A stretch of 64,000 nucleotides of DNA from Bacteroidota bacterium. Lineage in GTDB: Bacteria; Bacteroidota; Bacteroidia; Bacteroidales; FEN-979. Location of the stretch: assembly GCA_026391835.1 (NCBI GenBank), contig JAPLDF010000068.1, positions 188,101 to 252,100 on the forward strand, written 5' to 3'. This document shows positions 4,513 to 57,506 of this stretch, one piece after another (position 1 is the stretch's first letter; each line of letters opens with the position of its first letter). The position numbers and the translations under genes are program-made. The notes under the pieces were generated by a model, which was not told the DNA's origin, made no database searches, and worked only from the letters and a program-made list of their open reading frames with translations.

Positions 4513-4555
4513 TCGAAAAGGAACTGGAACTGCAGGATACCTGGCAGGGAAAATA

Positions 4556-9787: not shown

Positions 9788-9798
9788 GTTTTTACGGT

Positions 9799-11175: not shown

Positions 11176-11184
11176 CCGGTGCCC

Positions 11185-12024: not shown

Positions 12025-12030
12025 TTGGTT

Positions 12031-31216: not shown

Positions 31217-31274
31217 GGCAACCTGAATTAACGGTTACAAAAGAACGGGTTCTGATCCTTTTTGGTATCGGGGT

Positions 31275-34372: not shown

Positions 34373-34402
34373 GCGGGAGAAGGAACTTGGGAAATCGATG
34401 AC

Positions 34403-35890: not shown

Positions 35891-36122
35891 GGTGGGTGGG
35901 TTGTTGACTGAAATTATGAAAGGCCGGAAAAAATGATTGGTAAAGATAAGCATATATTACATAAACAGCATACCATGGTGCAGCAAAGAAGAAATAACCC
36001 TGCATAAGCATTAAGCCATAACCGGGAAAACAAATTACCAATATGTTTTATTTTGCTATTACACAGGCCTAACATTTTCGTGGCGCGCCGTGTCTTCTCC
36101 GTTTCGGCATTTGGTTGGGGAT

Positions 36123-36600: not shown

Positions 36601-36609
36601 CCGGATGGT

Positions 36610-38103: not shown

Positions 38104-38113
38104 GGTGTAAGGC

Positions 38114-41379: not shown

Positions 41380-41727
41380 TTACATCAGGTCGCCCAGCGG
41401 GCCAAGGTTGATGTTTAAATCCCTGTCGGTCAGGTTAAAATGCTTTTTCATCTCTTCCATTTTCAGTTCCAGTTTCATCAGGGTTTCTCCCAGCCGTTCT
41501 ATTTCGGTATCGGTCAATGTTCCGCCATCGACTCTTCGCATAGCCTGTTTTTCAACAAGTTTTCGGATGAGTTCAACCAGGGTGAGTACCAGTTTTGCCA
41601 ACCCCGAATCGGCATTGTCGGGCGTGAGTTTCAGTTTTGATTTTTCCGGATTGGCGGTAAAATTCCCGATCTCCCCCGAAAGATCATCGAGCGATCCTGT
41701 ATTGAAAAGTATTTTGTTTTCACTCAT
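41380..41727 (-). CDS. gvpK: gas vesicle protein K
   Basis: LAKLVLTLVELIRKLVEKQAMRRVDGGTLTDTEIERLGETLMKLE...LNINLGPLGDLM matches the GvpK consensus pattern. Confidence 0.9.
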   Translation of the reverse strand: MSENKILFNTGSLDDLSGEIGNFTANPEKSKLKLTPDNADSGLAKLVLTLVELIRKLVEKQAMRRVDGGTLTDTEIERLGETLMKLELKMEEMKKHFNLTDRDLNINLGPLGDLM

Positions 41728-41741
41728 TTCGGTATATGCCG

Positions 41742-42500
41742 TTATTTTATATCCAAATCAACAAAATTGTAGGGTGGCCATGGCCCGGTGAGGATAAATC
41801 TCAGCCCGGCGTTCTGGCGTTGCAAATCCTTTACAACCTGGATCAGTTCAGCTTTTTTATCCCTTTCAAGTAAAAAAACCGCATCGATGATCAGGGCCTC
41901 TGATACCATCTTTTTGAAATTGTTCACAGCACCCAGGTGTTCCAGGCGACCGGCGATTTCAGTGATGACAGCATCGACATAGGCCAGCATCGATTCTTCA
42001 AGCCTGTGTTCGGCAAGTTTTTTATCCAGGTAATCGCGGTATACCGAATTTTTGATTTCCGGGGAGGGTTTGAGGTGCATTTTCTCACCGGCCCCGGATT
42101 TCAGCCGCAGTTCCTCCATCAGTTTCCCTGAATCACAAAACACCTTCAGCCCAAACTCATATTTGTTTTCGACCTTCAGCAGGTTCTGTAAAATTTCATG
42201 ACGGTTCCTTTCAAGCATTTTTACGATCGCATCGGCCGAACCCATCAGGGAGCCAAACCTCACGGGAAGCAGGGTGAATTGCTGGGCGAGGGTATCGATC
42301 ACGCCGGCAAAGGTGAGTGCATTGATTTTATCTGCGATGAGGTTTGCACCCTTCACATTGCTGACAACTGTATAAATATCATCATATGAAACTGCAAAAA
42401 GGTCACACCCCACCACACCCTTCATCCCCATCAGCAGGGCGTTTAGCTTGTCGGAGTTGTTTTTTACAGATACTATTGCATAAGACATCATATTCATCAC
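41742..42500 (-). CDS. GvpF/GvpL family gas vesicle protein (paralogue 5)
   Basis: Central LLPVRFGS block and C-terminal TGPWPPYNFV, which is the family signature. Confidence 0.85.
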   Translation of the reverse strand: MMNMMSYAIVSVKNNSDKLNALLMGMKGVVGCDLFAVSYDDIYTVVSNVKGANLIADKINALTFAGVIDTLAQQFTLLPVRFGSLMGSADAIVKMLERNRHEILQNLLKVENKYEFGLKVFCDSGKLMEELRLKSGAGEKMHLKPSPEIKNSVYRDYLDKKLAEHRLEESMLAYVDAVITEIAGRLEHLGAVNNFKKMVSEALIIDAVFLLERDKKAELIQVVKDLQRQNAGLRFILTGPWPPYNFVDLDIK

Positions 42501-42730
42501 TGCATGGCCTGATTAACCTGTTTGTTCTTTCCCGCGATTGACTGCCCCGACTTCAATTGTTCCATGGTTTCAACAGAACTTAACATCAGCTTTAGTCCCA
42601 GGTATACAAGGTCGACATCAGCGACTGAAATGACAACATCGCCTGTTATGATGACCCCCTTGTTGAGCACCCGGTCGAGTAATTCAAGAATGGTAATTTC
42701 CTTTGACCGGTCAATTTCATTGTCGTACAT
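42497..42730 (-). CDS. GvpA-family minor protein (GvpJ/M/S-like)
   Basis: 77 aa. ITILELLDRVLNKGVIITGDVVISVADVDLVYLGLKLMLSSVETM is a GvpA-fold core. Confidence 0.8.
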   Translation of the reverse strand: MYDNEIDRSKEITILELLDRVLNKGVIITGDVVISVADVDLVYLGLKLMLSSVETMEQLKSGQSIAGKNKQVNQAMQ

Positions 42731-43524
42731 TATTGTTTTTCTTTTATTGAGATAAAGCTGAATGGTGGCCAGGGACCCGTTGCCTCAACAGAAATTCCGG
42801 TATTCCGGCCTTTGCTGCGCAGGGCATCAGCAACACTGCAGAAACCAGCCACCCTGCTTTTATCAACCAGGAAAGTGGCATTGAGGATCATCGTATCTTC
42901 CCTGCCCGTAAACTCTTTCGGGATCAGGTTGCTGATCTTTGTTGATTCGCTCAGGTTTTTAAATTCCACAAAATATTCATGCCCGTATCTCTTGCAAAGC
43001 CGGTCAATCTCATTTTCGATCAGTTCGTTTTTTTTCCGGCCCAGCAGGAATGCTTTTCCCGGCGAACTTGCCCTGATCTGCACTTCCATTGCAGCAGCTT
43101 CCGCGCTCAGTTCGTCAATTTTTTCGTTCAGCGCCTTGCGATCGCAGTAAATTTTAACCGACCATTCCTCTTTGCCCCTGATATTCAGGAAGTTTTCGGC
43201 CAGGGAGGCTGAGTAATCCGCAACGAATTGTTTCAGGCTGGCCTCCGTCTGATAGATCGTACCAAATTTAAAAGGGATGACCGCGCCCTGCTCCATGACC
43301 ATCAGGATTACCTCGATGTGTTCCCTGGCATTTTTTTCTAGCCACTGAATATCCGATACATTTTGCCTGAAATTCGCTTCAGAGAAACCATCTTCAGAAA
43401 CCAGTTTTACGATCACGGTAAAACCACCCGACACGACAAATTTCACCCCCCTGGCTTCAAACCTGCCGGTTTCCCGGGGGAGCGCCTCAGCAATGCAGTA
43501 CACATATATCAGGTTGCCTGTCAT
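42730..43524 (-). CDS. GvpF/GvpL family gas vesicle protein (paralogue 4)
   Basis: N-terminal LIYVYCIAE, central VIPFKFGT and C-terminal TGPWPPFSF. Confidence 0.85.
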   Translation of the reverse strand: MTGNLIYVYCIAEALPRETGRFEARGVKFVVSGGFTVIVKLVSEDGFSEANFRQNVSDIQWLEKNAREHIEVILMVMEQGAVIPFKFGTIYQTEASLKQFVADYSASLAENFLNIRGKEEWSVKIYCDRKALNEKIDELSAEAAAMEVQIRASSPGKAFLLGRKKNELIENEIDRLCKRYGHEYFVEFKNLSESTKISNLIPKEFTGREDTMILNATFLVDKSRVAGFCSVADALRSKGRNTGISVEATGPWPPFSFISIKEKQ

Positions 43525-43808
43525 GACTGTGAAGTGCTATCCATGCCCTCGAAGGAGTTAAGCCGTTCAAAAGAGGTGATCTCAAGCTGCTCATCCATTT
43601 TAACCATATAAAACAGCCTGACCTGTTTCGGTGGAAGGTTCATTGATTTCAAAAAGGAGTCGTTCTCATATACCTCCGCAATGGAATTCCAGCTTTCCTG
43701 TACTTTTTCAATCTTTATGACCGTTACATCATAACAGTTAATGTTCTCTTTCAGAAACTTAACCACTGTTTTCTTAACGTCAATAATATTTCCCATCGGT
43801 TCCTCCAA
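43521..43808 (-). CDS. putative GvpO-like gas vesicle accessory protein
   Basis: 95 aa. The pattern W..IAEVYE...YMVKMDEQLEITSFER resembles the W..VVEV.ER...YE..LD core that I recall for GvpO. The call is supported by position in the cluster only. Confidence 0.4.
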   Translation of the reverse strand: MEEPMGNIIDVKKTVVKFLKENINCYDVTVIKIEKVQESWNSIAEVYENDSFLKSMNLPPKQVRLFYMVKMDEQLEITSFERLNSFEGMDSTSQS

Positions 43809-43826
43809 TTGTTTCCCAGTTTGTTA

Positions 43827-44063
43827 TTACCTGTTTTGTTTTTCTTCCCTGATTTGTTCCAGCAATTTCAACAATTCATCTTCCCGCCTGTCGTACTCCT
43901 CCTCGTCGATTTCGTCCATTTCAAACTTTAACTGCAAGCCCATCAGCCGTTCCTTGATGGCTCCTTCATCCGACATTTCCCGGTCGATCACCTCATTTAT
44001 CTTCTTCCCGATAAAAATTACGCCTTTCAGCGGTGCCAGAAGGATATCATCGATTAAAAACAT
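43827..44063 (-). CDS. gvpG: gas vesicle protein G
   Basis: MFLIDDILLAPLKGVIFIGKKINEVIDRE...EEYDRREDELLKLLEQI is the typical GvpG pattern. The start was chosen at ATG 44063. The ORF track starts at 44090. Confidence 0.8.
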   Translation of the reverse strand: MFLIDDILLAPLKGVIFIGKKINEVIDREMSDEGAIKERLMGLQLKFEMDEIDEEEYDRREDELLKLLEQIREEKQNR

Positions 44064-44064
44064 G

Positions 44065-44847
44065 CTACACTCCTTTTGTTTTGATGACAAGGTTCACAAA
44101 ATTATACGGAGGCAGGGTGCCTACGTATTTGAAGGTCATTAATGCCCCGTATTTTTCGTCGAGGTCGTTTACCGCCTTGTCGAAATCAGGTTCCGAAATG
44201 TTTTTAATCAGGAAGGCCGCATTGATGATCATCATCTCGCCATAGTTCTCGTTTATTTTCGTGTCGTCGCAAAGCGGGGTGAGAACATCGAGGATTGTTT
44301 TTTTATAATTCTCCGTCTCCTTTTTCAATGCTTCGGCCACCATTTCGCCGATTTTCATACGCTGGTAATGTGTTTTATCGACCGGCAGGTTCATCAGCTT
44401 TCCACGCATCGTCCTTATTTCATCATATTTTTCAACAATACTTTCATACATGGGCGCTTCGTGGGCAAGTACCTTGAGCCCCAGCTCTTTTTTCCCGTCC
44501 ATTTTATTCAGCAGGTCGTCGAATTTCCTGTACTCCTGTTCAAGGATCTTCAGGAGCCCTGAATCATCGCTGTATTCGGAGATGGTTGAAAACCTCACCG
44601 GGAGTACCGTGAACTGCCTCATCACCTCCTCGAGTACTTTTTCATGGGTGGTCATGTTTATTCTCCGGGCTTCATACTGGATGACCGGCGAATTGCTGAC
44701 GATGGCGCTGATATCCCTGTAATTGATACCGTATACCGCATCGGCGCGTTTTCCGATGCCGATAGGGCCGAATTCAATCGGGCCTGCATGCCTGATGATC
44801 CCGTAAATGTACTTTCCCTCCTTTGGTATTTCCTGTTCGCTGCTCAT
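44065..44847 (-). CDS. GvpF/GvpL family gas vesicle protein (paralogue 3)
   Basis: GKYIYGIIRH...ISAIVSNSP...VLPVRFST...GTLPPYNFV. Confidence 0.85.
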   Translation of the reverse strand: MSSEQEIPKEGKYIYGIIRHAGPIEFGPIGIGKRADAVYGINYRDISAIVSNSPVIQYEARRINMTTHEKVLEEVMRQFTVLPVRFSTISEYSDDSGLLKILEQEYRKFDDLLNKMDGKKELGLKVLAHEAPMYESIVEKYDEIRTMRGKLMNLPVDKTHYQRMKIGEMVAEALKKETENYKKTILDVLTPLCDDTKINENYGEMMIINAAFLIKNISEPDFDKAVNDLDEKYGALMTFKYVGTLPPYNFVNLVIKTKGV

Positions 44848-44870
44848 AAAGACTGTTCAAAAAGTTTATT

Positions 44871-45644
44871 TTACAATTCCCATTTTTCGGGAAATATTTT
44901 CAGGTCGATAAAGTTAAAAATCGGGAGGGGGGCCGTATAAACAAAGTCGCACCGGTCCTGGTACCGGGCACCAATGGTGGCCATGATGTTGTCAAATTCG
45001 ACCTCCCTGCCGCTGTTTACAAGGAATGCAGTATTCATAAACACGGCATCGCTGCCTGTCTTGTTGTGTTTAAACTCGAATACGGATTTCCTGAAAGCAT
45101 CGGTTATTTTTTCAGTTTCTTCCTCTTTCATTGCTATAAGGGCACGTTCGACCAGTTTCCCGGCCTCATCGATCTTCAGGTTCCGCTCTTTCGAATCTGC
45201 CAGTTTATTTATTTCCGCCCTGAGTTTTTGAAGTTCCACATGCTCCCTGTCGATTTCGTTATAGATGATTCCCATATTTTTCCAGGTTCCCCGCACATTG
45301 AGTTCAACCTTGTTTTCAAACTGTCTCAGCAGCTCCATAAACTCGCTGTACCTGCGGTTGAGCAGGTTCCTGATTTCGTCGGGGGTTGCGGCGATGGTGC
45401 CGAACCTGATGGGAAGTATGCTCCTGAATTCCTTCATCACCTCTTCGATCACCTTCTGATGCGCCAGCATGTTTTCGGGATTGACAACAAACCGGCTCAG
45501 CGGGTGATCGCTGACGACCATACACAATCCGTCGAAACCTATGGTGGACACCAGGTCGCCGCGTCCGCCTACCCCGATCGGGCCCAGGTTGATGTCGTAA
45601 TCCGACGCAATGATGCAATAGATGTATTTTCCGTCGCGCTGCAT
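44871..45644 (-). CDS. GvpF/GvpL family gas vesicle protein (paralogue 2)
   Basis: GKYIYCIIAS...LCMVVSDHP...ILPIRFGT...APLPIFNFI. Confidence 0.85.
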   Translation of the reverse strand: MQRDGKYIYCIIASDYDINLGPIGVGGRGDLVSTIGFDGLCMVVSDHPLSRFVVNPENMLAHQKVIEEVMKEFRSILPIRFGTIAATPDEIRNLLNRRYSEFMELLRQFENKVELNVRGTWKNMGIIYNEIDREHVELQKLRAEINKLADSKERNLKIDEAGKLVERALIAMKEEETEKITDAFRKSVFEFKHNKTGSDAVFMNTAFLVNSGREVEFDNIMATIGARYQDRCDFVYTAPLPIFNFIDLKIFPEKWEL

Positions 45645-45645
45645 A

Positions 45646-46686
45646 CTACTCCTTAATTTTTACTAAAATCAAATTCCCGGCCACGTCTTCCTTTGCCAGG
45701 GATATCAGGTCCTCTTTGACAGACTGCCTTACCGATGCCGAATAATCAAGCAGGGAGTGGTAGGCATCAATGATCATGTTAAAGTTTTCGACATCATCGG
45801 AATTGAGGTTGTTGTCGGGATGGAACAACTTTGCCCTTTCGAGGTATGCCTTTTTTATCTCCTGCTCGGTAATCCTTTCCTTTACGCCCAGGGCCCTCCT
45901 TGCCTGGTCAACCCTCCTGGCATTCAGTTCAATAACTTCAAGTGTAAAAAAACTGTAACAGGGTAGCGGGCCTACCAGCTTGAAATTCAACGTTCCCCGG
46001 TATTCTTCATCCAGCAGGTCAATGGCATGCTCGAACTTTTCCTTCTTGTTGCGGTTTATTAAAAATGCCGCATTGACCACCATCTCGTCGTTCATCACTT
46101 CATGCATTTTGATATCAAGTCCATATGGCGATAAGGCATCCAGTATTTTCAGTTCAACGTCTTTATTTTTCGCCTCAACAATATCCTTGATCAGCATCCC
46201 CACTTTCACCTGGTCTACTTTTGTGACGTTGCCGTTTTTTTGTAAAATTTCGGCCTTCATGGCACGGATGTCCGGAAGGGAAGAAATGGCTCCCAGTATC
46301 CCCGGGAAATCCGCCCAGGTTATGACCAGGTCGATTTCCGTCAGGTACTCGATTTTCTTCAGGGCATCAATGATCAGGTCATGGCCGCATGTAAGGACCT
46401 TCAGCACCTCATCTATTGAGTTTACGATCGTGCCAAGCCGCATGGGGAGGATCATGGTGAATCCTTTACCCTGCAACTCTTCTATGATCTCCTGGTGATG
46501 AACCAGCAGGTATCCCAGGGATTCCCGGTCGGAATAGTTGACCTGCGTTCCATCCCTGTCGGAAACAATCGCCGATATGTTTTGAAAAGTGATGGCGTAA
46601 ACCCCCGAATTTTCAAGTGATTGAAAGTGGGTTGTCCCGTAAAAATTCGGCACGATCCCATAGATGTAAATTCCTTTTGCAGCCAT
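45646..46686 (-). CDS. GvpF/GvpL family protein fused to a C-terminal DnaJ J-domain (paralogue 1)
   Basis: Residues 1-250 are GvpF/L-like (IYIYGIVPN...ISAIVSDRD...ILPMRLGT...GPLPCYSF). Residues about 258-314 read ALGVKERITEQEIKKAYLERAKLFHPDNNLNSDDVENFNMIIDAYHSLLD, with an HPD motif at 289-291. Confidence 0.85.
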   Translation of the reverse strand: MAAKGIYIYGIVPNFYGTTHFQSLENSGVYAITFQNISAIVSDRDGTQVNYSDRESLGYLLVHHQEIIEELQGKGFTMILPMRLGTIVNSIDEVLKVLTCGHDLIIDALKKIEYLTEIDLVITWADFPGILGAISSLPDIRAMKAEILQKNGNVTKVDQVKVGMLIKDIVEAKNKDVELKILDALSPYGLDIKMHEVMNDEMVVNAAFLINRNKKEKFEHAIDLLDEEYRGTLNFKLVGPLPCYSFFTLEVIELNARRVDQARRALGVKERITEQEIKKAYLERAKLFHPDNNLNSDDVENFNMIIDAYHSLLDYSASVRQSVKEDLISLAKEDVAGNLILVKIKE

Positions 46687-46736: not shown

Positions 46737-48896
46737 TCATTTCTTCACCGAATTTTGTTGAATTACAAGTTGTATCGCCTCTTCAAAATGTGCTTCCAGG
46801 ATGGAAATTTCTCCTGTAATTTCATCCTGGTTGTTGCGGTTTTTCTCTATAAGTTCCCTGATAGCGAGCATGGCCGCTTTCCGGCAGATGAATTCAATAT
46901 CCGAGCCGGTGAGCCCGTCGGTTTTAAGCGCCAGTTTTTTGATGCTGACCTTTTTCCCGAGGGGTTTGTTCCGGGTATGAATCGTGAATATTTTCTCCCT
47001 GGTGTTAACATCGGGCAGGGGCAATTCAAAAATCAGGTCGAACCGTCCGCTTCGCAGCAGGGCCGGGTCGATCAGGTCGATGCGGTTTGTTGCTGCGAGT
47101 ACAATGACTCCTTTCAGGTCTTCGATGCCGTCCATTTCGGTAAGAAACTGGCCAATGACCCTTTCGATGACCCCGGATCCTGAACTGTCGCTGCTGCGCC
47201 TGGGTGTAAGGCTGTCAATTTCATCAAGGAACAGGATGCACGGCGATGCCTGTTTTGCCATCCGGAAGAGTTCCCTGACACCTTTTTCCGACTCGCCGAT
47301 ATACCGGCTCAGGATTTGCGGCCCTTTTACTGAGATGAAATTGACACCGCTTTCGCTTGCCAGCGCTTTTGCCAGGTAGGTTTTGCCGGTTCCCGGCTTG
47401 CCGTGGAGGATGATCCCCTTGGGCGGTTTGGTATCGGCTTTTTTAAACAGTTCTGCATATTTCAGGGGCCATTCCACTGTTTCTTTCAATGCGTCCTTAA
47501 TTTCCTCAAGTCCGCCCACATCGTCCCATTTCACATCGGGAACCTCAACGAAAACCTCACGGATGGCCGAGGGTTCCACCTCCTTCATGGCATCCATGAA
47601 ATTGTCCATGGTCACCTCGAGCGACATTAAAAGTTCGTAGGGAATTTCGGCCATTTCGAAATCGATCTGCGGGAGTATTTTCCTGAGGGCGGTCATGGCG
47701 GCTTCCCGCGCCAATGCTTCAAGATCGGCGCCCACAAAGCCATGCGTGATCTCCGCCAGCTTTTCCATATCCACGTCCATCGACAGGGGAATTCCCCGCG
47801 TATGGATGTGCAGGATCTCAAGCCTTCCTTTTTTGTCGGGAATGGAGATGGAAATTTCCCGGTCGAACCGTCCCGGCCTTCTCAATGCAGGATCAATGGA
47901 ATTGGGAATGTTGGTCGCACCGATCACGATCACCTTACCCCTCGATTCCAGCCCATCCATGAGCGACAACAGCTGGGCTACCACACGTTTTTCAACCTGC
48001 TTTTCGCCGCCCATGTCCTCACGCTTGGGGGCAATGGCATCGATTTCGTCGATAAAAATGATGGAAGGAGCATGGGCCTGGGCTTCCTCAAAGAGTTTCC
48101 GGATACGCCCTTCGCTCTCACCGTAAAACTTCCCCATGATCTCGGGGCCGGAGATGTTTATAAAATAGGCATCCGTTTCATGGGCCACAGCCCTGACGAT
48201 GAGGGTTTTGCCGGTTCCCGGGGGGCCGTAGAGAAAAACCCCTTTGGGTGGCTGGACCCCGAGCCGCTCGAAGATTTCGGGATATTTCAGCGGAAGTTCG
48301 ATCATCTCCCTGATCCGCTGAACCTGGTTTCCAAGACCACCGATATCTTCGTACGAAACCTTGCTTTTGCGCTCTCCCTCCTGTTTTGCCAGTTCGAGCT
48401 GGAAAACTGTGTTCGGGTGTATCAGGACCACTCCTTCAGGGTTGACACCTGTTACGGTATAATCCACCGAACGGGAGCCAAACAGGTTGGCCCTCACCTT
48501 GTCGCCTTTTATCACCGGCAAGCCGTTGAACAGCGAACCAATGTATTTACCGTCGTCGCTTTTAAACAGCGAACCGGACTTGGTGTCGGGTTTGAGTTTT
48601 ATTTTTGCAGCCTGGCGGAAGGAGGTCTTCACGACCTTCACTTTTTCATCGATCCCGGCCTGGGCATTTTCCCTGGTAATGCCGTCAATCTGAATCAGGT
48701 TCTTGTCCCTGTCTTCGGGATAGCAGGGCATGATCTTGACCGGGGTGGCCCGTTTGCCTTCGATCACCACCAGGTCGCCACTTTCGAGGCCGAGCAGTTT
48801 CATGTCTTTCGGATCCATCCGGGCAATCGCCCTTCCCACATCTTTCACCAGGGCTTCTTTTACCCGCAGTACTATTTCTTCCTTGATTTTGGCCAT
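46737..48896 (-). CDS. Cdc48/VCP-like double-ring AAA+ ATPase
   Basis: 719 aa. Cdc48-N-like domain ([38 protein letters not shown]). D1 Walker A GPPGTGKT with Walker [10 protein letters not shown]2 Walker A GKPGTGKT with Walker B ILFLDEID. Confidence 0.9.
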
Positions 48897-48913
48897 GGTT
48901 ATATTTTTTTCCG

Positions 48914-49858
48914 CTACGACAACTCGTTAAAAAGACACCTCTTCAATTCATTCAGTGCATTCAATCCTTTGATCTCTTCAGGGAACCTGGGCACCTCCAC
49001 TTTGTTCAGGGAGCCGAAGGTTTCGCCTATTTCAGTTAAATACGGCAACTGGCCGGCTTTGCTACGCCTGCAGAAATCACATCCGTCGGAAACCATGACA
49101 TTGTTCACAATGATCTGCCTGGCAATTATTTCAGAATTGGCAAGGATCGACAGCAGCCTACCTGTTTCCATGATCGCCATCGCTTCGGGTATGCAAACCG
49201 GGATAAATTCACACCTTGTGCCGTCGCGTAAAATGTTTTCGATCCTTTTCACCGTTTTCTTCAAGCTGAGCAACAGCACATCCACCTCGTCCGGCTGGTA
49301 GGACCCGGAAAAGCTGGTGATCATGTACCGGTATTTCCAGCGCATCCTTGCCGCGACCTTGATCCACTCGTCCAGCAATTTCGGGGAGGAAATCAGCCGC
49401 AATGCATGACCGGTGGGCGCAGTATCCACAACATATTTGTCGTACTCCCCTTCCTCTATAAAATCGATGATGGTTTTGAAGCTCATCACCTCGTCAATCC
49501 CGGGAATCGAGAGGGAAAGCATCTCTTCGATATCCTGGTTATCAAGATTTGTAGATGTTTCGAACAGCTTTTTCAGTTCTGCCTGGTACCCGGTGATGAA
49601 CTCCGAAAGCGCCTCATCTGCAACCACTTCAATGGCAGAGAGGTTGTCGGTACCGTCAACCTTTACCACGTTAAAACCAATTTGCTGTTCGAGTCCGTCC
49701 GACAGCGAATGGGCCGGATCGGTGGAAATGAGAAGTGTTTTATAATTTCCGGCCAGCGCCAGGGATGTGGCAATGGCACAACTGGTTTTTCCAACACCGC
49801 CTTTTCCGCCGAAAATAATAAGTTCCAGGTCGCTGTTTTCCAAGCCAGTCAGTGCCAT
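48914..49858 (-). CDS. ArsA/Get3-family P-loop ATPase
   Basis: Deviant Walker [11 protein letters not shown], the family motif [10 protein letters not shown] and [11 protein letters not shown]. Confidence 0.85.
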
Positions 49859-49862
49859 TACG

Positions 49863-50411
49863 TTATTTTTTTATCCTGATCTCAAGAATGCCGTTTGTAA
49901 ATTTATGCCTCAGGTTTTTCCGGTCGGCTTTTTCAGGAAGCAGCAGTTCCTTGCGGTACGACCTGCTTTTGCTTACTGCCGAAATTTCAAGGATGTCTTC
50001 CTTCAGATCGATGTGGATATCGCTTTCCTCTATTCCGGGCATTTCTGCAATGATCACCAGTTCATTCTTTTCATTGAAGACATCGGTGATGGGCTCCCGC
50101 TCTTCATCCACCTTTGGTCCCTCCGGTGTTTTTTTGATATTCCCGAAGGTTTCAACCCTGGGAGAGCCTCCGCCGGCCGTATTGATGGTAAACCCATAAA
50201 CGCCTTTCATGCCTTTTTTGATGTGATCAAAGTTGATCTCCCCCTCCTTTTTTATACCACCACTTTCATCGAGTTTCCCTGCAAGGTCAACAAGTTTCTC
50301 AATGCCTTTGAAAAGGCCACCAAGTCCGAAAAGATCAAAATCGGCTTCATCTTTTTTTTCTTTTTTCTTGTCGTTTTCCATTTTATACCAGGTTTTAACG
50401 GTTCTTAACAA
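49863..50411 (-). CDS. Hsp20/alpha-crystallin family small heat-shock protein (GvpH-like position)
   Basis: ITDVFNEKNELVIIAEMPGIEESDIHIDLKEDILEISA...KFTNGILEIRIKK is an alpha-crystallin domain. The N-terminus is Lys/Glu-rich. Confidence 0.85.
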   Translation of the reverse strand: MLRTVKTWYKMENDKKKEKKDEADFDLFGLGGLFKGIEKLVDLAGKLDESGGIKKEGEINFDHIKKGMKGVYGFTINTAGGGSPRVETFGNIKKTPEGPKVDEEREPITDVFNEKNELVIIAEMPGIEESDIHIDLKEDILEISAVSKSRSYRKELLLPEKADRKNLRHKFTNGILEIRIKK

Positions 50412-50463
50412 TATTCCTTCACCGGTCCGTCCATCTGAAGGGAAGGAATCCGGTACAGGGTTA

Positions 50464-50760
50464 TCATGGTTTATTCATTGCCTCCAGTTTCTCCAGCCGC
50501 GACTCCAGCGCATCCTGTTGCTGCATCAGTTCTTTTTCCCTGGCTTTGGTTGAAAGATAGGTGTCTTCCTGCCACCAGTTTATGCCCATCTCCATCGCCT
50601 TGTCAACCGACGCCACCAGCAACCTGATCTTGATGGTCAGCAGGTCAATATCCGCAATCTGAATTTTAATATCGCCGGCAATCACGATGCCTTTGTCGAG
50701 GACTCTTTCGAGGATATCGGCCAGGCCGGTCGCCTGGATCGAATGGGTAGGTTCTGACAT
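50464..50760 (-). CDS. gvpJ: gas vesicle protein J-like (GvpA family)
   Basis: LADILERVLDKGIVIAGDIKIQIADIDLLTIKIRLLVASVDKAMEMGINWW. Confidence 0.85.
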   Translation of the reverse strand: MSEPTHSIQATGLADILERVLDKGIVIAGDIKIQIADIDLLTIKIRLLVASVDKAMEMGINWWQEDTYLSTKAREKELMQQQDALESRLEKLEAMNKP

Positions 50761-51152: not shown

Positions 51153-52070
51153 TCAGGAATATTGTTCAATAAGTTCATTCACAATGATTTTTACCTTTTC
51201 CTGGTTGGTTTTTGATCCAATCCGGCTGGTTTCGGACGTGAGGATGTCCTGGCATATTTTCCGGAACATATCCTTTGATTTTGACGGCGTTGTTTTTAAT
51301 GTCGCCAGGGTTTTTGCAATCATGATGGAACCACGGATGGTCGGATCGAATTCAGTTTTCCCCGATTCGCGCAACCCTCTCACAATCTTCACGATGATTT
51401 CGGTATCCTTCAATGAAAGCAGAGATTTTGCCCGGGTGATCTGCAATTCCGTTTCATAGTCAAAATGATCCAGATCCATGGTCACCATGCGGTCGCGCAA
51501 GGCATCCTGGGTACGGTTCACCCCTGCGTACTCCTCGGGATTTGAGGTAAAGATGGCACGGAATTCGGGATGCACCTTCATGTAGTAATCCTCCTCCTTT
51601 GCCGCCGAAGTGCTCAGCATTCTCTCCTGCAGGATGGGAAGCAGGATGTTGTTGGCTTCGGGACGTGAACGCGTGAACTCGTCATATATCAGTGTAAACC
51701 CGTTTTTTACGGCAATGGTCAAACGGTTGTTCACCCACTGCTTGGTCATGTCCTCTTCATACTTATGCACCGAATGAATAAACTTGTCATCCAGCTTTTT
51801 GTACTTATATCCCTGTTCACTGCCAATGAGATCGGACGTTTTATACTCGGCATCGCCATGGATGATCACCACCGGGCGGCCTATTTTACTGGCCAGGTGC
51901 ATGGCTACGGTCGTTTTCCCGGTACCCGACGGCCCCCTGAAATGAACAGGGAATCCGGCTTTGATATAGGTCAGACCACGGTTGGTGATATCCCTGATAT
52001 AGTCTGTTTCTACAAAATTTGACATCGGCTTCAGTTCGAGCACGGTATTCATTTCATTGTTGTCGCTCAT
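51153..52070 (-). CDS. gvpN: gas vesicle protein N (AAA+ ATPase)
   Basis: FVETDYIRDITNRGLTYIKAGFPVHFRGPSGTGKTTVAMHLA, Walker B LIYDEFTR and a size of 305 aa. Confidence 0.92.
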   Translation of the reverse strand: MSDNNEMNTVLELKPMSNFVETDYIRDITNRGLTYIKAGFPVHFRGPSGTGKTTVAMHLASKIGRPVVIIHGDAEYKTSDLIGSEQGYKYKKLDDKFIHSVHKYEEDMTKQWVNNRLTIAVKNGFTLIYDEFTRSRPEANNILLPILQERMLSTSAAKEEDYYMKVHPEFRAIFTSNPEEYAGVNRTQDALRDRMVTMDLDHFDYETELQITRAKSLLSLKDTEIIVKIVRGLRESGKTEFDPTIRGSIMIAKTLATLKTTPSKSKDMFRKICQDILTSETSRIGSKTNQEKVKIIVNELIEQYS

Positions 52071-52340: not shown

Positions 52341-52372
52341 CCAATTTTCAAATTTTCAAATCTTCAAATTTC
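52341..52372. repeat. octamer tandem repeat (CAAATYTT) x4, inverse orientation of the 51093-51140 array
   Basis: ccaatttt caaatttt caaatctt caaatttc. Positions 52348-52369 are the exact reverse complement of 51097-51118. Confidence 0.9.
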
Positions 52373-52682
52373 AACAGACACCCCGGCCTTTACATTGGGT
52401 ACAAGGCAGGCCATCGCCCGATTTACCGCTTCCGTTGCATTGCCGGCATTTTTTATTGTTTTCGACATGGTTGTTTCCCTTTCCGCCGCATACGATACAC
52501 GGCACCCTTGCACCCAACGGATTTTTACCGGAACCGTCACAAAACACACACTTTTTCATGGGTTCATCAACCCCAACGCTCCCGGTGCCATTGCAAACGA
52601 GGCATTTTGAGATCGGAGAAAGCAGGTCAAAAGGATCCTTTCCCGTGGCGCTGCAAAACGGACAATTGAATGTTTTTATCAT
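52371..52682 (-). CDS. stand-alone DnaJ-type (CR) zinc-finger protein, six CxxCxGxG repeats
   Basis: 103 aa with CPFCSATG, CLVCNGTG, CVFCDGSG, CIVCGGKG, CRQCNGSG and CTQCKGRG. Confidence 0.7.
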   Translation of the reverse strand: MIKTFNCPFCSATGKDPFDLLSPISKCLVCNGTGSVGVDEPMKKCVFCDGSGKNPLGARVPCIVCGGKGNNHVENNKKCRQCNGSGKSGDGLPCTQCKGRGVC

Positions 52683-52972: not shown

Positions 52973-54193
52973 CTATTTTATCGGATAATAAATATTATCA
53001 ATTTTCTGAACTTTTCCTCCATCGAGCAACGTTTTTGCAGTATACCCGAGCTTCATCCTTGTTTCGCCGAGGGGTTCTTCCATTTCCGAGATCTTAACCC
53101 CCTTGGGATGCTTGTTGATATAATCCAGGACTTTCTGATCCAGTGTTCTGGTATCTGAAAGAACCGCCTTAACTGCTGCAACGGGAGTTTCTTTAACAAC
53201 TTCCGCGGAAGCCTCCTTTTTCACCTCTTTCTTTTCGGTTTTCTTTACGGTCTGCTTCGGTGCGGGGGCAACGCCTGTTTTCCTTACGTGGGCCATTGTT
53301 TCCTGCATTTTATTCCATTCTGCCGAGGCATCAACCCTGTTTTGCAGCAAATCATCCAGCATCCCGGCAGTGGCTTTTTGAACATCCCTGACCTCTTTCT
53401 GAATTCCCTTGATTGAAACATGAATTCCCTTCATGATCGCATTGTAATCGGTGATCCTGTCTGTTTCGCCTTTGGAGAGATCTTTTCTCAGTTTTTGGGC
53501 CATTTTCTGATTTTCCCTCCCGATTTCCGACAGCCTCTTCTGGAAGCCATGCAGCAGTGCCCTGGTATAATCGACTCTTTCACCAAGGTTTTTGCCCAAT
53601 TCCGCTTTCAGTTCTTCCGACATCTCCTTGTGTTCCTTTTCAAACCGGTCGAGCATGTTGTTCGTGTTCAGGAAGATCGTTGAAACCTCATCGTTGATGA
53701 TTTTAATATCGTCGCCGATATTCGACATGAGTGCATCAAACTCCGCCATCCTGTTCTTTTCCTCCTGCATCCTGTCGGCCCGGCCCTGTGCAAAGGTTTT
53801 ATCCAGGTCGTCGGCCATGTGTGCCCGGTCTTTTGTGAATTCGCTGATCATTTTGAAGGTGGAAGTTTGAATGGCCACCACTTCATGCTGAATGGAGGCG
53901 ATTGTTCCATGGATCCCCGACATCAACCCGTTAAAATTGTGCAGCCGTTCTTTCTCCCCGCGCGCAAGACCTTTCCTCAGGGCAGCGGCATTTGCATTCA
54001 ATGCTACAGCCAATTCCATATGATCCTTGCGGAAACCGTCGAGGGTTACCTGGACGTCATTAACAAGTTCTTCATTTTCCCTGATGCGTTGCTTGAACGA
54101 AGCAAGTAACTCTTCTGTCAACACCTTCATGTCTGATGCTAGTCCCATTTGTTTATCTCCTATTTTAAATGAATTTAATGTTTCCTGGGTCAA
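52973..54193 (-). CDS. helical-repeat protein with Lys/Ala/Val linker and C-terminal winged-helix-like domain (GvpC-position protein, long paralogue)
   Basis: 406 aa. Internal repeats are LRKGLARGEKERLHNFNGLMSGIHGTIASIQHEVVAIQ, RADRMQEEKNRMAEFDALMSNIGDDIKIINDEVSTI and LRKDLSKGETDRITDYNAIMKGIHVSIKGIQKEVRDVQ. The tail is LDYINKHPKGVKISEMEEPLGETRMKLGYTAKTLLDGGKVQKI. Confidence 0.7.
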   Translation of the reverse strand: MTQETLNSFKIGDKQMGLASDMKVLTEELLASFKQRIRENEELVNDVQVTLDGFRKDHMELAVALNANAAALRKGLARGEKERLHNFNGLMSGIHGTIASIQHEVVAIQTSTFKMISEFTKDRAHMADDLDKTFAQGRADRMQEEKNRMAEFDALMSNIGDDIKIINDEVSTIFLNTNNMLDRFEKEHKEMSEELKAELGKNLGERVDYTRALLHGFQKRLSEIGRENQKMAQKLRKDLSKGETDRITDYNAIMKGIHVSIKGIQKEVRDVQKATAGMLDDLLQNRVDASAEWNKMQETMAHVRKTGVAPAPKQTVKKTEKKEVKKEASAEVVKETPVAAVKAVLSDTRTLDQKVLDYINKHPKGVKISEMEEPLGETRMKLGYTAKTLLDGGKVQKIDNIYYPIK

Positions 54194-54798
54194 CTGATTT
54201 CCTTAATGATTTGATTTTTAACAATTTTTATGTCTTCAATCCGGATATGATCGCCTTTTTCAAGCAGTCCTTCCAGGCACTCCATCATCCTGTTGTGCAT
54301 GTGCTGAAATTCCAGGAACGTCTTCATCACCGTTTCCTTTCTCGACTCCTGCAATTTTGAAACCTGTGAAAGCTGGTCCTTGATGATGTTAATCTTTTCG
54401 GTAGCATCCTGGGATGCAATATCTTTAATGCCCAGCAGGCTCGCTTTCAGCGATTGGGCAGTCTCTTTCTGCGCTTCAATGAATGAGAGGAACAAACTTT
54501 CGGCGGCCCGTTCTTTTTCATCGAGTGCACAAAGAATGCCTGACATCATTGCGTTGTAATCTTTTTTCCGAAGGGAACCCTTTTTGGCGAGGGTTTCGCA
54601 CAACCTCGAATTCATGATATCCCGCTCCTTTTTCAGATCGTGCAGTGAGTTATGCACATTATCGAACAGGGAGTGGGACGATTCAGTAATGTATTCGGAC
54701 GACTGGAAAGCAGTTTGTATTTTCTGGATGCGGTTTTCGTATGAGGTTATGATGTTGTTGAAAAAACCATCGATGTTTAATTCGGGCAGGGGACTCAT
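54190..54798 (-). CDS. helical-repeat protein, short paralogue of 52973..54193
   Basis: It shares the repeat LRKKDYNAMMSGILCALDEKE. It has a 4-nt overlap with the next gene. The likely start is ATG 54798 (MSPLPEL). The ORF track uses TTG 54804. Confidence 0.65.
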   Translation of the reverse strand: MSPLPELNIDGFFNNIITSYENRIQKIQTAFQSSEYITESSHSLFDNVHNSLHDLKKERDIMNSRLCETLAKKGSLRKKDYNAMMSGILCALDEKERAAESLFLSFIEAQKETAQSLKASLLGIKDIASQDATEKINIIKDQLSQVSKLQESRKETVMKTFLEFQHMHNRMMECLEGLLEKGDHIRIEDIKIVKNQIIKEIS

Positions 54799-54957
54799 AT
54801 TCAATTATTAATTTATTTACAAACAGGGTGTTGGGTTATGGGATGGTTGTGCTGGCTATTCAGGGGCTGAAAAAGAAATTCTTGGTAATCCATGCTTTCA
54901 TGTATTAAACAGGGAAGGATGTCTTAGCAAGAATAGCTGTTAAACTGCAGGACTGCC

Positions 54958-55161
54958 TTATGCGGCTTTTGCAGTCAATCCGATTGCTTCAGCATACTTC
55001 AGGTATGTCTCAACAGAGGCAACAACGATTCTTGCTTCAATTGCAAGCAGTTCGATACCTACCAATGAAACTCTTACCCATGCATCAACTACGACACCTT
55101 TGTCAAGGATACGGTCGATAACTTCTACCAGGCTGGATGATCCGATCGTCTTTTCTACCAT
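54958..55161 (-). CDS. gvpA: major gas vesicle structural protein GvpA
   Basis: 67 aa. [55 protein letters not shown] is near-canonical GvpA. AGGAG lies 9 nt upstream of the ATG. Confidence 0.95.
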
Positions 55162-57498: not shown

Positions 57499-57506
57499 AT
57501 TATCTT

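Follow-up and report, generated by a model that had tools for sequence, protein, structure and literature searches.

The window, a stretch of 64,000 nucleotides from a Bacteroidota contig, carries a gas vesicle (gvp) operon of about 14 kb. Three contiguous genes on its minus strand, encoding an Hsp20, a Get3/ArsA-type ATPase and a Cdc48-type ATPase, share that strand with the structural gvp genes and lie between gvpJ and a gene for a GvpF/L paralogue fused to a J domain (GvpF/L::J). The genes of the cluster are as follows:

54958..55161, minus strand: gvpA, which opens the cluster and encodes the major shell protein of 67 aa (PF00741, 4.4e-16)
52371..52682, minus strand: stand-alone DnaJ_CXXCXGXG zinc-finger protein, 103 aa (PF00684, 34 bits against a cut-off of 32.7)
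51153..52070, minus strand: GvpN, AAA_5-type ATPase (PF07728, 1e-20; plasmid homologues annotated gvpN)
50464..50760, minus strand: GvpJ-like member of the GvpA family, directly 5' of the trio (PF00741, 5.9e-17)
49863..50381, minus strand: Hsp20/alpha-crystallin small heat-shock protein, GvpH-like, 172 aa from the ATG (PF00011, 5.9e-8)
48914..49858, minus strand: Get3/TRC40-type ATPase, annotated as ArsA family, 314 aa (PF02374, 2e-74)
46737..48896, minus strand: Cdc48/VAT-type double-ring AAA+ ATPase, 719 aa (CDC48_N, CDC48_2, two AAA domains and two lids)
45646..46686, minus strand: GvpF/L paralogue with a C-terminal J domain containing HPD (PF06386, 2e-46; PF00226, 8e-11)
41380..45644, minus strand: remainder of the operon 3' of the trio, assigned by Pfam and made up of the next eight genes
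44871-45644, minus strand: GvpF
44065-44847, minus strand: GvpF
43827-44090, minus strand: GvpG
43521-43808, minus strand: GvpO-like protein, weak match
42730-43524, minus strand: GvpF/L
42497-42730, minus strand: GvpS-like protein of the GvpA family
41742-42500, minus strand: GvpF/L
41380-41727, minus strand: GvpK

According to the coordinates, the spacers were 4 nt between hsp20 and arsA, 17 nt between arsA and cdc48, and 50 nt between cdc48 and the GvpF/L::J gene. The mechanical open reading frame of hsp20 extends to a TTG at 50411 (49863-50411), and the ATG at 50381 is the likely start because the orthologues are 172 aa long; measured from the TTG, gvpJ is 52 nt away, and from the ATG, 82 nt. 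From this spacing we infer that the trio is co-transcribed with the gvp genes. An earlier, sequence-only reading had described the trio as standing back to back in the gvp operon, with 4-17 nt spacers, between gvpJ and the GvpF/L genes, which agrees with the coordinates. Its three family assignments (Cdc48-like, ArsA/Get3 and Hsp20) held when scored against Pfam and TIGR profiles, and GvpN, the J-domain fusion and the DnaJ-type zinc-finger protein were all found by Pfam. The gene order of the downstream gvp genes was also seen in relatives, and the zinc-finger gene likewise lies 5' of gvpN in two distant relatives (L090 and L100). Hydrophobicity in the cluster peaks in segments of GvpA, GvpS and GvpG, with the top 19-mer in GvpA (KD19 maximum of 1.87, residues 23-41). 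No tail-anchored protein is encoded in the cluster and no Get1/2/4/5 partners were found nearby, while signalling genes flank it, comprising a sigma-54 response regulator, multi-PAS kinases and a CheB-CheR fusion.

The Cdc48-type protein scored 923 bits against TIGR01243 (cut-off 803), and its best PDB match (5g4f, 4.9e-216) bears the title 'VCP-like ATPase' for a chain that we take to be Thermoplasma VAT. It consists of an N domain (CDC48_N and CDC48_2) followed by two rings, D1 and D2; the Walker A, Walker B and arginine-finger residues are intact in both, and the aromatic pore loops are KFYG 256-259 and RYIG 531-534. These ATPase and pore-loop motifs were invariant in 81 sequences. The HbYX tail was absent, a penultimate Tyr being found in 0/81 of the same sequences, and Bacteroidota, to our knowledge, lack 20S proteasomes; therefore, the motor probably remodels its substrates rather than feeding a protease. 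The N domain is encoded by a separate gene in two distant relatives (L090 and L092) and is missing altogether from the cyanobacterial ones.

The second protein of the trio carries the P-loop GGKGGVGKT, the switch I motif DPAHS, the switch II motif DTAPTGH and a CxxC at C260/C263 in a single domain with a Get3-type helical-subdomain insert after switch II. It scored 244 bits against TIGR00345 (cut-off 135) and only 97 of the required 650 bits against the arsenical-pump equivalog TIGR04291. Its PDB matches were ARSA1 (5zme, 1.5e-73), 3zq6 (5e-50) and E. coli ArsA (1f48, 2e-26). The metalloid-binding cysteines of ArsA, named in the sequence-only reading as residues to look for, are all three missing, as no cysteine of the protein aligned with C113, C172 or C422 of ArsA. 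Judged by these features, the protein is a Get3-type ATPase and not an arsenite pump. A single domain of 311-317 aa was found in about 66 close relatives and in L090 and L100. The CxxC, retained in 56/66 and 64/66 orthologues, is not invariant, being absent from about 15% of them, and the subfamily has an (L/M)RWKYR motif of its own where the client-binding region is presumed to lie.

The Hsp20 comprises a conserved N-terminal region of about 95 aa and an alpha-crystallin domain, with no C-terminal extension, and its orthologues of 172 aa end in ...ILEIRIKK. Its match to PF17886 (ArsA_HSP20; 6.8e-4) was below the cut-off of that model, its score against NF041800 (archaeal Hsp20) was 134.9 against a cut-off of 140, and its best PDB match was the entry 'Small heat shock protein hsp20 family' (4rzk). 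The closest plasmid homologues lie within gvp clusters, one of them annotated gvpH; RefSeq already annotates the Hsp20 of gvp clusters as GvpH. The RefSeq 'GvpH' of the Methylosinus gvp cluster is an Hsp20 homologue with 29% identity over 85% of the window protein, while the only Halobacterium matches were to a generic Hsp20 adjoining a Cdc48 gene (27% identity, E = 7e-4). In bacteria, fusions of Get3 homologues to alpha-crystallin domains occur commonly (PMC6593721), and both these fusions and the Hsp20-Cdc48 pair that Halobacterium plasmids carry outside gvp clusters count in favour of the proteostasis module proposed below.

The linkage of the trio to gvp genes was strict and deep. In species-representative genomes, 79 of the 80 nearest relatives of the Cdc48 gene, which came from Bacteroidales, Prolixibacteraceae, Polaribacter filamentus, Ignavibacteriae and Chlorobium and were 82-93% identical, were located within the same gvp cluster. 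The order Hsp20-Get3-Cdc48 was kept in 66 of the 68 among them that had enough flanking sequence, the Get3 gene being cleanly missing from the other two (L051 and L056). All eight sampled distant relatives were also embedded in gvp clusters (L089, L090, L091, L092, L100, L101 and L102, as well as L087 for the tandem Get3), including metagenome-assembled genomes (MAGs) of Atribacteria (L089), Nitrospirota (L091, Nitrospiraceae) and Omnitrophota (L100). Since 79/80 close and 8/8 distant loci lie within gvp clusters, the position of the trio in the operon is not a chance insertion, and the synteny on which the sequence-only reading depended was found. Open reading frames read through in all intact cases recovered (80 Cdc48, 65 Get3 and 68 Hsp20), and the median identity of Cdc48 was 90% (80 species) compared with 94% for GvpN; Cdc48 was also more conserved than the GvpF/L paralogues. 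With open reading frames intact, motifs invariant and Cdc48 about as conserved as GvpN, the trio genes look functional. According to the isolate names, many carriers are MAGs of stratified lakes.

Across the anaerobe-type clusters, no feature varies less than the adjacency of the Cdc48 and GvpF/L::J genes. The fusion gene adjoins the Cdc48 gene in 65/70 genome loci under a strict distance rule and lies directly 3' of it in all six distant relatives with a readable downstream flank (L089, L090, L091, L092, L101 and L102), while the HPD motif is kept in 73/74 orthologues. The methanotroph and cyanobacterial clusters have no such fusion beside their AAA gene. On the Methylosinus and Methylocella plasmids, an Hsp20-X-Cdc48 arrangement closes the gvp cluster, whereas in Nostoc, Microcystis and Planktothrix a tandem Get3-like gene and a Cdc48-like AAA gene without the N domain, the latter conserved across gas-vacuolate genera, stand immediately 3' of gvpW. 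The Get3 gene is not found in the L092 or methanotroph gvp clusters, and an Hsp70 gene is located within that of L092. Bacteria of many phyla, bloom-forming cyanobacteria among them, thus have related pairs or trios in their gvp clusters, and the association involves at least two AAA lineages, varied architectures, and both single and tandem Get3.

Part of this linkage has been described before. Castillo and Saier (2010) found an arsA homologue and hsp20 among gvpN/L/F/G/J/K/M in Polaribacter irgensii, Pelodictyon luteolum and Geobacter uraniireducens, and arsA after the gvp genes in Anabaena/Nostoc, with an acidobacterium also listed; they proposed that the ATPase energises a step of gas vesicle biogenesis and that Hsp20 is a chaperone (PMC2963123). 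Consequently, the suggestion that an ArsA/Get3 homologue dedicated to gas vesicles would be a new use of the family does not stand, because the ArsA and Hsp20 link was published in 2010. Cdc48 has no occurrence in that paper, and a term search of it did not find the J-domain fusion. No paper noting a Cdc48-gvp link or the invariant Cdc48-GvpF/L::J pairing was found in the literature. The Cdc48-type motor, its fixed GvpF/L::J partnership and the breadth of the association, including cyanobacteria, are the most novel aspects of the locus, and were undervalued in the sequence-only reading.

GvpA, GvpJ and GvpM are reported to aggregate without chaperones, GvpH to stop the aggregation of GvpM, and GvpF to bind GvpA in a chaperone-like manner (PMC9501494; PMC11445434), and vesicle expression in a heterologous host leads to proteotoxic stress (PMC12848028). 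We give roughly even chances to the reading that the trio is a proteostasis module dedicated to gas vesicles, which would extract and reset hydrophobic, aggregation-prone shell proteins of the GvpA family; its clients, hand-offs and physiological effect we infer from family knowledge and gene linkage. Presumably co-expressed with the structural gvp genes, the atypical small heat-shock protein and the Get3-type ATPase would act as holdases for the hydrophobic hairpin of new or released GvpA, GvpJ or GvpS. The Get3-type protein is probably dimeric, and in most orthologues the CxxC could clamp the dimer via Zn. The GvpF/L::J protein may mark GvpA-family clients and recruit Hsp70/DnaK, and the Cdc48/VAT-type hexamer would thread and unfold off-pathway, mis-assembled or aggregated shell subunits by means of its aromatic pore loops. 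As it emerges, the chain could be recaptured by Get3 or Hsp20 and fed back into assembly by GvpF/GvpG, in a loop that would resemble both disaggregation by sHsp-Hsp70/J-ClpB and the capture by Get3 of tail-anchored proteins that an AAA+ motor has extracted. Such a module would lift the yield and fidelity of vesicle assembly while standing outside the minimal shell-building set. Counting against this reading, the CxxC of the Get3-type protein varies and the trio is not universal in gvp clusters: the Get3 gene is lacking from L051, L056, L092 and the methanotroph loci, Octadecabacter has only the Hsp20 and Spartinivicinus none of the three genes. As far as we know, neither Get3 nor Cdc48 is needed for vesicles to form from the well-studied clusters of Halobacterium, Bacillus megaterium and Serratia, or when E. 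coli expresses cyanobacterial gvpA-gvpW sets.

The same proteins might instead serve to dismantle vesicles, the motor stripping GvpA from collapsed or unwanted, otherwise extremely stable shells, and Get3 and Hsp20 capturing the subunits for re-use or disposal, which would allow slow-growing bacteria of anoxic waters to reset their buoyancy without diluting old shells by growth. The VAT-like motor with its N domain, two intact rings and aromatic pore loops suits this role, as the classical activity of Cdc48 is to pull subunits from stable assemblies; the many carriers named for stratified lakes are in keeping with it, and in clusters of FCB bacteria, Omnitrophota and cyanobacteria Get3 stands directly before or after the AAA gene, which fits a hand-off from extraction to capture. 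However, the trio lies in the middle of a biogenesis operon with 4-17 nt spacers and is therefore probably made during vesicle building, neither a protease nor any separate regulation is linked to it, and we know of no report of enzymatic gas vesicle disassembly. We regard recycling as rather unlikely, about which it must be said that it overlaps mechanistically with the proteostasis module, and that assembly-side quality control and the recycling of finished or collapsed vesicles are indistinguishable by sequence. It is less probable still that Cdc48, with the J-domain GvpF/L protein as adaptor, controls a Gvp assembly factor or regulator rather than a shell protein, for example by removing GvpF/G/J/K nucleation complexes or a repressor and so timing initiation against elongation. 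The invariant Cdc48-GvpF/L::J adjacency suggests an adaptor-motor pair, and the signalling genes around the cluster would suit regulation, but this proposal leaves unexplained both the co-conserved holdases and the cyanobacterial and methanotroph versions, which have no J-domain fusion beside the AAA gene, and no regulator-like client is evident.

A purely hitch-hiking origin, in which an archaeal-type sHsp/Get3/Cdc48 cassette for general proteostasis was inserted into an ancestral gvp cluster and spread by horizontal transfer with no vesicle-specific role, appears very improbable. Halobacterium plasmids do hold an Hsp20-Cdc48 pair outside gvp clusters, and all three proteins score best with archaeal-type models or, for Cdc48 and Get3, with structures that we presume to be archaeal. 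The cluster itself looks horizontally mobile, as Cdc48 is 82-87% identical across Bacteroidales, Polaribacter, Ignavibacteriae and Chlorobium while the neighbouring regulator is 63-67% identical in Polaribacter and Chlorobium. On the other hand, the gvp linkage of the sampled Cdc48 clade members and its recurrence in different architectures are not expected of a passenger, and purifying selection on Cdc48 is about equal to that on GvpN. We give least credence of all to the ArsA-like protein being a real arsenite-pump ATPase or a ParA/MinD-like vesicle-spacing ATPase functionally unrelated to Hsp20 and Cdc48. Several annotation sources call it 'ArsA family / arsenite-transporting ATPase', and its deviant Walker A is shared with ParA/MinD (weak CbiA/ParA Pfam matches); nevertheless, its TIGR04291 score, single domain and lack of the three cysteines contradict a pump, no arsB, acr3, arsD or arsR was found among the cluster genes by Pfam, the ParA match is marginal (E = 0.0077), and both the best matches, to Get3/ARSA1 proteins, and the helical insert point to Get3.

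The motor resembles Thermoplasma VAT and archaeal Cdc48 in its N domain and its two catalytically intact rings, whose aromatic pore loops read KFYG/RYIG here and KYYG/KWVG in 5g4f, but it is bacterial, lacks the HbYX proteasome-docking tail and is dedicated to gvp by linkage. Similarly, the ATPase shares with archaeal and eukaryotic Get3 (TRC40) its family, with TIGR00345 above the cut-off, its P-loop and switch motifs, its helical-subdomain insert and a CxxC aligned with the CEFC of the 3zq6 chain, presumably Methanothermobacter Get3. It differs in being encoded within an organelle operon without Get1/2/4/5 or tail-anchored clients nearby, and its group is set apart by the partial loss of the CxxC and by the (L/M)RWKYR motif in the putative client-binding region. 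The ArsA and Hsp20 linkage is like that of Castillo and Saier (2010; PMC2963123), whose gvp-associated ArsAs have two domains and about 600 aa, in contrast to the single domain with a Get3-type CxxC in the window. Haloarchaeal GvpH is comparable to the Hsp20 as a non-essential accessory Gvp reported to stop GvpM from aggregating (PMC9501494), and its name is shared by the Methylosinus homologue, but it is no more than a candidate orthologue. The comparison with the IbpA/B, DnaK/DnaJ and ClpB system, in which the sHsp keeps clients extractable, the J-protein targets Hsp70 and a two-ring AAA+ threads, is a likeness of mechanism and not of membership. The motor here is of the Cdc48 type rather than ClpB/Hsp104 and has no M-domain, the J domain sits on a GvpF/L scaffold rather than on a DnaJ client-binding domain, and a Get3-type ATPase is added. 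The putative counterparts, namely sHsp, J domain, DnaJ zinc finger and motor, are all encoded in one operon, to which L092 adds Hsp70.

The region from 41.4 to 55.2 kb of the window was resolved by ORF and Pfam annotation as one minus-strand gas-vesicle (gvp) cluster. In it, the genes for an Hsp20, an ArsA/Get3-like ATPase, and a Cdc48-like ATPase (the trio) lie between a gvpJ-like gene and the gene for a GvpF/L paralogue fused to a C-terminal J domain (GvpF/L::J). The gene order was as follows.

54958-55161, minus strand: gvpA, first in gene order
52973-54804, minus strand: two coiled-coil-looking proteins of 204 and 406 aa, no Pfam or NCBIfam family
52371-52682, minus strand: DnaJ-type CXXCXGXG zinc-finger protein
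between the zinc-finger gene and gvpN, minus strand: 60-aa ORF
51153-52070, minus strand: GvpN
between gvpN and the gvpJ-like gene, minus strand: 104-aa protein
50464-50760, minus strand: GvpJ-like protein
49863-50411 (TTG start as listed), minus strand: Hsp20 with an alpha-crystallin domain
48914-49858, minus strand: ArsA/Get3-family ATPase
46737-48896, minus strand: Cdc48-family ATPase
45646-46686, minus strand: GvpF/L with a C-terminal J domain
thereafter in order, minus strand: two GvpF, GvpG, a weak GvpO-like protein, GvpF/L, a GvpA-family protein, GvpF/L, and GvpK
41380-41727, minus strand: GvpK, end of the cluster

The spacers within the trio were 4 and 17 nt, exactly the figures given in the sequence-only reading. 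The likely start of hsp20 is the ATG at 50381 and not the listed TTG, because its orthologues are 172 aa long. The two coiled-coil-looking proteins, with a median identity of 61-74% in relatives, could be a GvpC-like outer scaffold, as judged by their position. A 519-aa ORF on the plus strand (47742-49301), antisense to the cdc48 and get3 genes, had no supporting evidence and most likely just shadows the coding strand, which is highly constrained.

The conservation of this arrangement was assessed by a Cdc48 scan with one genome per species, which returned 459 relatives, and the best 80 of these (82-93% identical) were mapped. Genes for gvp proteins stood beside cdc48 in 79 of the 80 loci, the exception being a 2.4-kb contig, and the order GvpJ-Hsp20-Get3-Cdc48-GvpF/L::J was kept in 66 of the 68 loci with enough upstream sequence. 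The co-localization noted earlier from the window thus recurs in its relatives, and the trio is not a chance insertion. The carriers comprised many Bacteroidales, Polaribacter filamentus ATCC 700397, and Ignavibacteriae and Chlorobium MAGs, several of these taxon labels being MAG bins of which some may be mis-binned. Judged by these relatives, the window itself stems from a Bacteroidales-type bacterium. Two Bacteroidales loci, L051 (~9966-10001; a complete chromosome) and L056 (~9900-10001), cleanly lacked the get3 gene, so that Hsp20 abutted Cdc48. Median identities among the best 80 were 90% for Cdc48, 94% for GvpN, 83% for Hsp20, 76% for Get3, and 47-82% for the GvpF/L paralogues, which places the conservation of Cdc48 near that of GvpN and above that of the others. 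An extra GvpO-like gene (e.g., L001:9149-9403) was found between gvpJ and hsp20 in 3/80 close loci and in some further contigs, and a small zinc-ribbon gene behind gvpG in 31/80 (e.g., L001:16116-16313); the window contains neither the former (50381-50464) nor the latter (43808-43827).

Linkage extended to distant lineages. All eight sampled distant loci, comprising those of the Cdc48 clade and L087, lay in gvp clusters. L087 carried a Get3-like protein of tandem type with 650 aa, which was the nearest representative at 50% clustering. A metagenome scan with the tandem Get3-like protein P0121 gave three loci, of which L087 and L089 were informative. L089 (Atribacteria) had the order Cdc48 (65% identical)-GvpF/L::J-GvpF-GvpF-GvpG-...-tandem Get3, and L100 (Omnitrophota) had DnaJ-Znf-GvpN-...-Hsp20-Get3-Cdc48. 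Hsp20-Get3 (311 aa)-Cdc48-GvpF/L::J was found in L090, and Cdc48-GvpF/L::J in L091 (Nitrospiraceae), L092, L101, and L102. Get3 was absent from L092, which retained Hsp20, Cdc48, and GvpF/L::J. On plasmids of Methylosinus sp. C49 and Methylocella tundrae, the end of the gvp cluster read GvpJ-gvp-Hsp20 (annotated GvpH)-hypothetical-CDC48. The hypothetical protein (L096:11382-11939, L094:11080-11661) had 185-193 aa and no significant Pfam match; its gene occupies the place of get3 in the window. The Octadecabacter gvp cluster contained Hsp20 only, and that of Spartinivicinus none of the three trio genes.

A related gene pair was found in classical cyanobacterial clusters. Directly after gvpW, Nostoc sphaeroides p4, Microcystis, and Planktothrix carried a tandem Get3-like gene (633-634 aa), followed by a gene for a double-AAA protein of 613-615 aa without the N domain.

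L103:9801-13584: tandem Get3 and double-AAA pair, Nostoc sphaeroides
L105:8016-11845: tandem Get3 and double-AAA pair, Microcystis
L106:7929-11848: tandem Get3 and double-AAA pair, Planktothrix

The one copy compared, from Nostoc, was 49% identical to the two AAA rings (D1-D2) of the window protein and lacked its N domain. In gas-vacuolate cyanobacteria, the double-AAA protein was 76-100% identical across Nostoc, Anabaena, Trichormus, Gloeotrichia, Microcystis, Planktothrix, Arthrospira, Nodularia, Raphidiopsis, and others. In Arthrospira NIES-39 (L107), its gene stood alone among IS elements.

An Hsp20-Cdc48 pair adjoining a universal stress protein gene was also present on Halobacterium salinarum pHSAL1 (L095:8558-11208). 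It was not counted as gvp linkage, since it lies outside the gvp cluster, ~27 kb from gvpN on the same plasmid, a spacing repeated on other Halobacterium plasmids; this location suggests that Hsp20-Cdc48 may be an older two-gene unit. A neighbour-joining tree of the AAA proteins (345 columns) separated archaeal and rhizobial Cdc48s without gvp linkage, an anaerobe-type gvp-linked clade, and a cyanobacterial and methanotroph gvp-linked clade with 83% support. As the deep nodes of this tree are weak, the gvp-linked AAA ATPases may go back to one recruitment or to two.

The Cdc48-like protein (719 aa) scored 922.9 bits against a cut-off of 802.65 for the CDC48 family (TIGR01243), with CDC48_N, CDC48_2, and two AAA modules in Pfam. 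Its closest solved structure was 5g4f (4.9e-216), deposited as 'VCP-like ATPase', which we take to be the archaeal unfoldase VAT, with eukaryotic p97 behind. The Walker A and B motifs, Arg fingers, and aromatic pore loops (KFYG, RYIG) were intact in both rings. The motif positions 224-231, 255-262, 279-286, and 339-347 as well as 499-506, 530-537, 554-561, and 614-620 showed no or almost no variation among 81 sequences. The protein carries the features expected of an active, VAT-like threading motor. While archaeal Cdc48/VAT and PAN dock on the 20S proteasome through a C-terminal HbYX motif, the gvp-linked Cdc48 orthologues lack it, with a penultimate Tyr in 0/81 and a QNxxKK tail. In two unrelated contigs, the N domain (CDC48_N and CDC48_2) was a separate ORF just upstream of D1-D2, which points to a genuine gene split or to repeated frameshifting.

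L090:8240-8737 and 8837-10411: split Cdc48 N domain and D1-D2
L092:2598-3164 and 3187-4773: split Cdc48 N domain and D1-D2

GvpF/L::J was encoded directly downstream of cdc48 in all six distant clusters with a readable flank and in nearly all close relatives, and its HPD motif was present in 73/74 orthologues.

L089:1193-2215: GvpF/L::J
L090:10404-11447: GvpF/L::J
L091:1673-2692: GvpF/L::J
L092:4788-5828: GvpF/L::J
L101:1987-2997: GvpF/L::J
L102:2158-3186: GvpF/L::J

A full-length Hsp70 (577 aa, PF00012 7e-185) was encoded within the L092 gvp cluster (10618-12351, plus strand), which fits recruitment of an Hsp70 by the J domain. Tight Get3-AAA adjacency recurred in the FCB group (Bacteroidota, Ignavibacteriae, Chlorobium), Omnitrophota, and cyanobacteria, and tight AAA-GvpF/L::J adjacency in clusters of the anaerobe type. 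These recurrent adjacencies suggest direct hand-offs between Get3 and the AAA protein and between the AAA protein and GvpF/L::J.

The Get3-like protein (314 aa) scored 244.2 bits against a cut-off of 135 for GET3/ArsA/TRC40 (TIGR00345) and 250.9 against 24.3 for PF02374. Its deviant Walker A (GKGGVGKT), switch I (DPAHS), and switch II (DTAPTGH) lined up with Get3/ArsA and were invariant in 42 aligned relatives. Among solved structures, it was closest to Chlamydomonas ARSA1 and to two chains, 3zq6 and 3ug6, with E. coli ArsA far behind; both chains were named arsenical pump-driving ATPases by their depositors and are regarded here as archaeal Get3. After switch II, the helical subdomain carried an insert of ~33 residues more than ArsA A1 in a MAFFT alignment; E. 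coli ArsA lacks this insert, and the TRC40-insert region of 3zq6 is ~6 residues longer. A CxxC motif (C260-D-F-C263) aligned with CEFC of 3zq6. In Get3, this motif clamps the homodimer through zinc. Its first Cys was retained in 56/66 orthologues and its second in 64/66, so the motif is not universal.

An arsenite-pump identity was weighed against these features. The protein reached only 97.4 bits against a cut-off of 650 for the arsenical pump model TIGR04291 and 145 against 800 for NF041417, and it is a single domain, not a tandem A1-A2 ArsA of ~580 aa. The sequence-only reading had left the metalloid-binding Cys residues of ArsA to be checked; in the alignment, Cys113, Cys172, and Cys422 had no counterpart, Leu or Gly stood at the aligned positions, and no Cys occurred between residues 28 and 215. 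The cluster contained no arsB/acr3, arsD, or arsR. Unlike in the E. coli plasmid ars locus, all neighbours of the get3-like gene are gvp or chaperone genes. Judged by model scores, motifs, and neighbours, the ArsA-like protein is Get3-type and not an arsenite pump.

Within the presumed client-binding helical region, MRWKYR (residues 172-177) was invariant. It recurred in the nearest relatives with a single domain and, among tandem proteins, in the C-terminal half of the closest two, and was found neither in 3zq6 nor in most tandem homologues. The pattern (W/Y/F)KY(R/H) was rejected as a general marker of gvp-linked Get3, being present in only 6/12 single-domain and in the C-terminal half of 2/138 tandem representatives; as a sequence signature, it marks the nearest subfamily only. 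The matches listed in the protein search with the window Get3 were all closely related (77% identity or more), and the search of 50% representatives gave diverse tandem relatives as proteins without genomic context. AlphaFold2 with 42 sequences, all at least 77% identical, gave no reliable fold (mean pLDDT 46, pTM 0.38).

Hsp20 matched PF00011 (33.2 against a cut-off of 20.8) and 4rzk (1.7e-14 over residues 99-182), and scored just below the cut-off of the NCBI archaeal Hsp20 model. No GvpH model was among its NCBIfam matches; a Methylosinus homologue with 29% identity is annotated gvpH. In the window and the large majority of 68 orthologues, the protein ended at the last alpha-crystallin strand (...GILEIRIKK) and therefore lacks the C-terminal anchoring extension (I/V-x-I/V) with which classical sHsps form large oligomers.

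Signalling genes lay on both sides of the cluster (30146-41326 and 56107-61298), those upstream encoding a sigma-54-dependent response regulator along with a kinase of 1263 aa that bears about six PAS domains, and those downstream a CheB-CheR fusion in addition to several PAS kinases. A sigma-54 regulator was also seen ahead of the methanotroph gvp clusters. A sigma-54 promoter search (TGGYAYN5TTGCW, one mismatch) gave 8 matches against 8.4 expected, none upstream of gvpA, and inspection of that region by eye revealed no convincing -24/-12 element. Sigma-70 and terminator scans, whose consensus models are ill-suited to Bacteroidota, gave counts not above shuffles. With no signal from these scans, operon structure and co-transcription were inferred from gene spacing.

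The trio is a genuine and strongly conserved feature of the gvp cluster, of which the literature describes only a part. Homologues of arsA together with hsp20 have been reported in gvp clusters of several phyla, with a proposed role in biogenesis (Castillo & Saier 2010, PMC2963123). The association of Get3 and Hsp20 with gvp clusters is therefore already known, and the idea of a gvp-dedicated ArsA/Get3, which had been put forward as a new use of the family, is an older one. Many bacterial Get3-like homologues of unknown function are fused to an alpha-crystallin domain (PMC6593721), which hints independently at cooperation between Get3 and sHsp domains. Within an incomplete literature coverage, no paper was found that combined 'gas vesicle' with Cdc48, unfoldase/disaggregase, or J-domain/Hsp70, and a search of partial coverage found no published description of the GvpF/L::J fusion. 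In papers on green-sulfur and cyanobacterial gvp clusters, the terms ArsA, Hsp20, and chaperone were absent, and AAA was used for GvpN only. No earlier description appears to exist of the Cdc48-type motor, of the J-domain protein paired with it, or of the extension of Get3 plus AAA to classical cyanobacterial clusters.

GvpA, GvpJ, and GvpM aggregate without chaperones, and GvpF binds transiently, like a chaperone, to the hydrophobic part of GvpA (PMC9501494, PMC11445434). The aggregation of GvpM is prevented by GvpH (PMC9501494), and current shell-assembly models contain GvpF, GvpG, and GvpN only (PMC11445434, PMC9501494). Vesicle production in foreign hosts is reported to cause proteotoxic stress, which limits the expression of vesicles as ultrasound reporters (PMC12848028); in that application, the trio genes would be natural candidates for helper factors. 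The most hydrophobic segments of the window's cluster were those of GvpA, a GvpS-like protein, and GvpG, and no tail-anchored protein was encoded in it. In light of this literature and these potential clients, we read the trio with GvpF/L::J and the zinc-finger protein as most likely a client-specific proteostasis line. Hsp20 and a Get3 dimer would act as holdases, the J domain would bring Hsp70 to clients bound by GvpF/L, and the Cdc48 threading motor would pull apart mis-assembled or aggregated shell subunits, which would then be re-fed. GvpA has 67 residues, and its hydrophobic hairpin would still be largely in the ribosome tunnel at termination, so that its capture after translation would make sense on the same grounds as that of tail-anchored proteins.

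In the main rival reading, this machinery would take apart vesicles that have collapsed or are in surplus. Operon-encoded holdases and a predicted unfolding motor are concrete candidates for shell dismantling as well as for GvpA solubility, delivery, and insertion, in organisms ranging from Bacteroidota to bloom-forming Microcystis and Planktothrix; the position of the trio in the operon favours action during assembly. The trio is probably an accessory outside the minimal gvp set. Get3 was lost in some carriers, and several functional clusters, among them those of Octadecabacter and Spartinivicinus and the model gvp clusters, do without all or part of the module. We consider it rather improbable that the Get3-like and Cdc48-like proteins form an overlooked two-ATPase machine of an ancestral gvp toolkit, shared from cyanobacteria to Bacteroidota, Omnitrophota, and Atribacteria, that extracts and re-inserts GvpA. 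If this were true, the 'inert' shell would be enzymatically remodelled and recycled, and a Get3 fold would chaperone a membrane-less, gas-facing hydrophobic surface.

With the preferred proteostasis line, Get3 and Cdc48 biology would reach a membrane-less prokaryotic organelle. Disaggregation by sHsp-Hsp70/J-ClpB and AAA+ extraction followed by Get3 capture are known routes; by analogy, the proposed gvp line would follow the logic of the former and mirror the latter.
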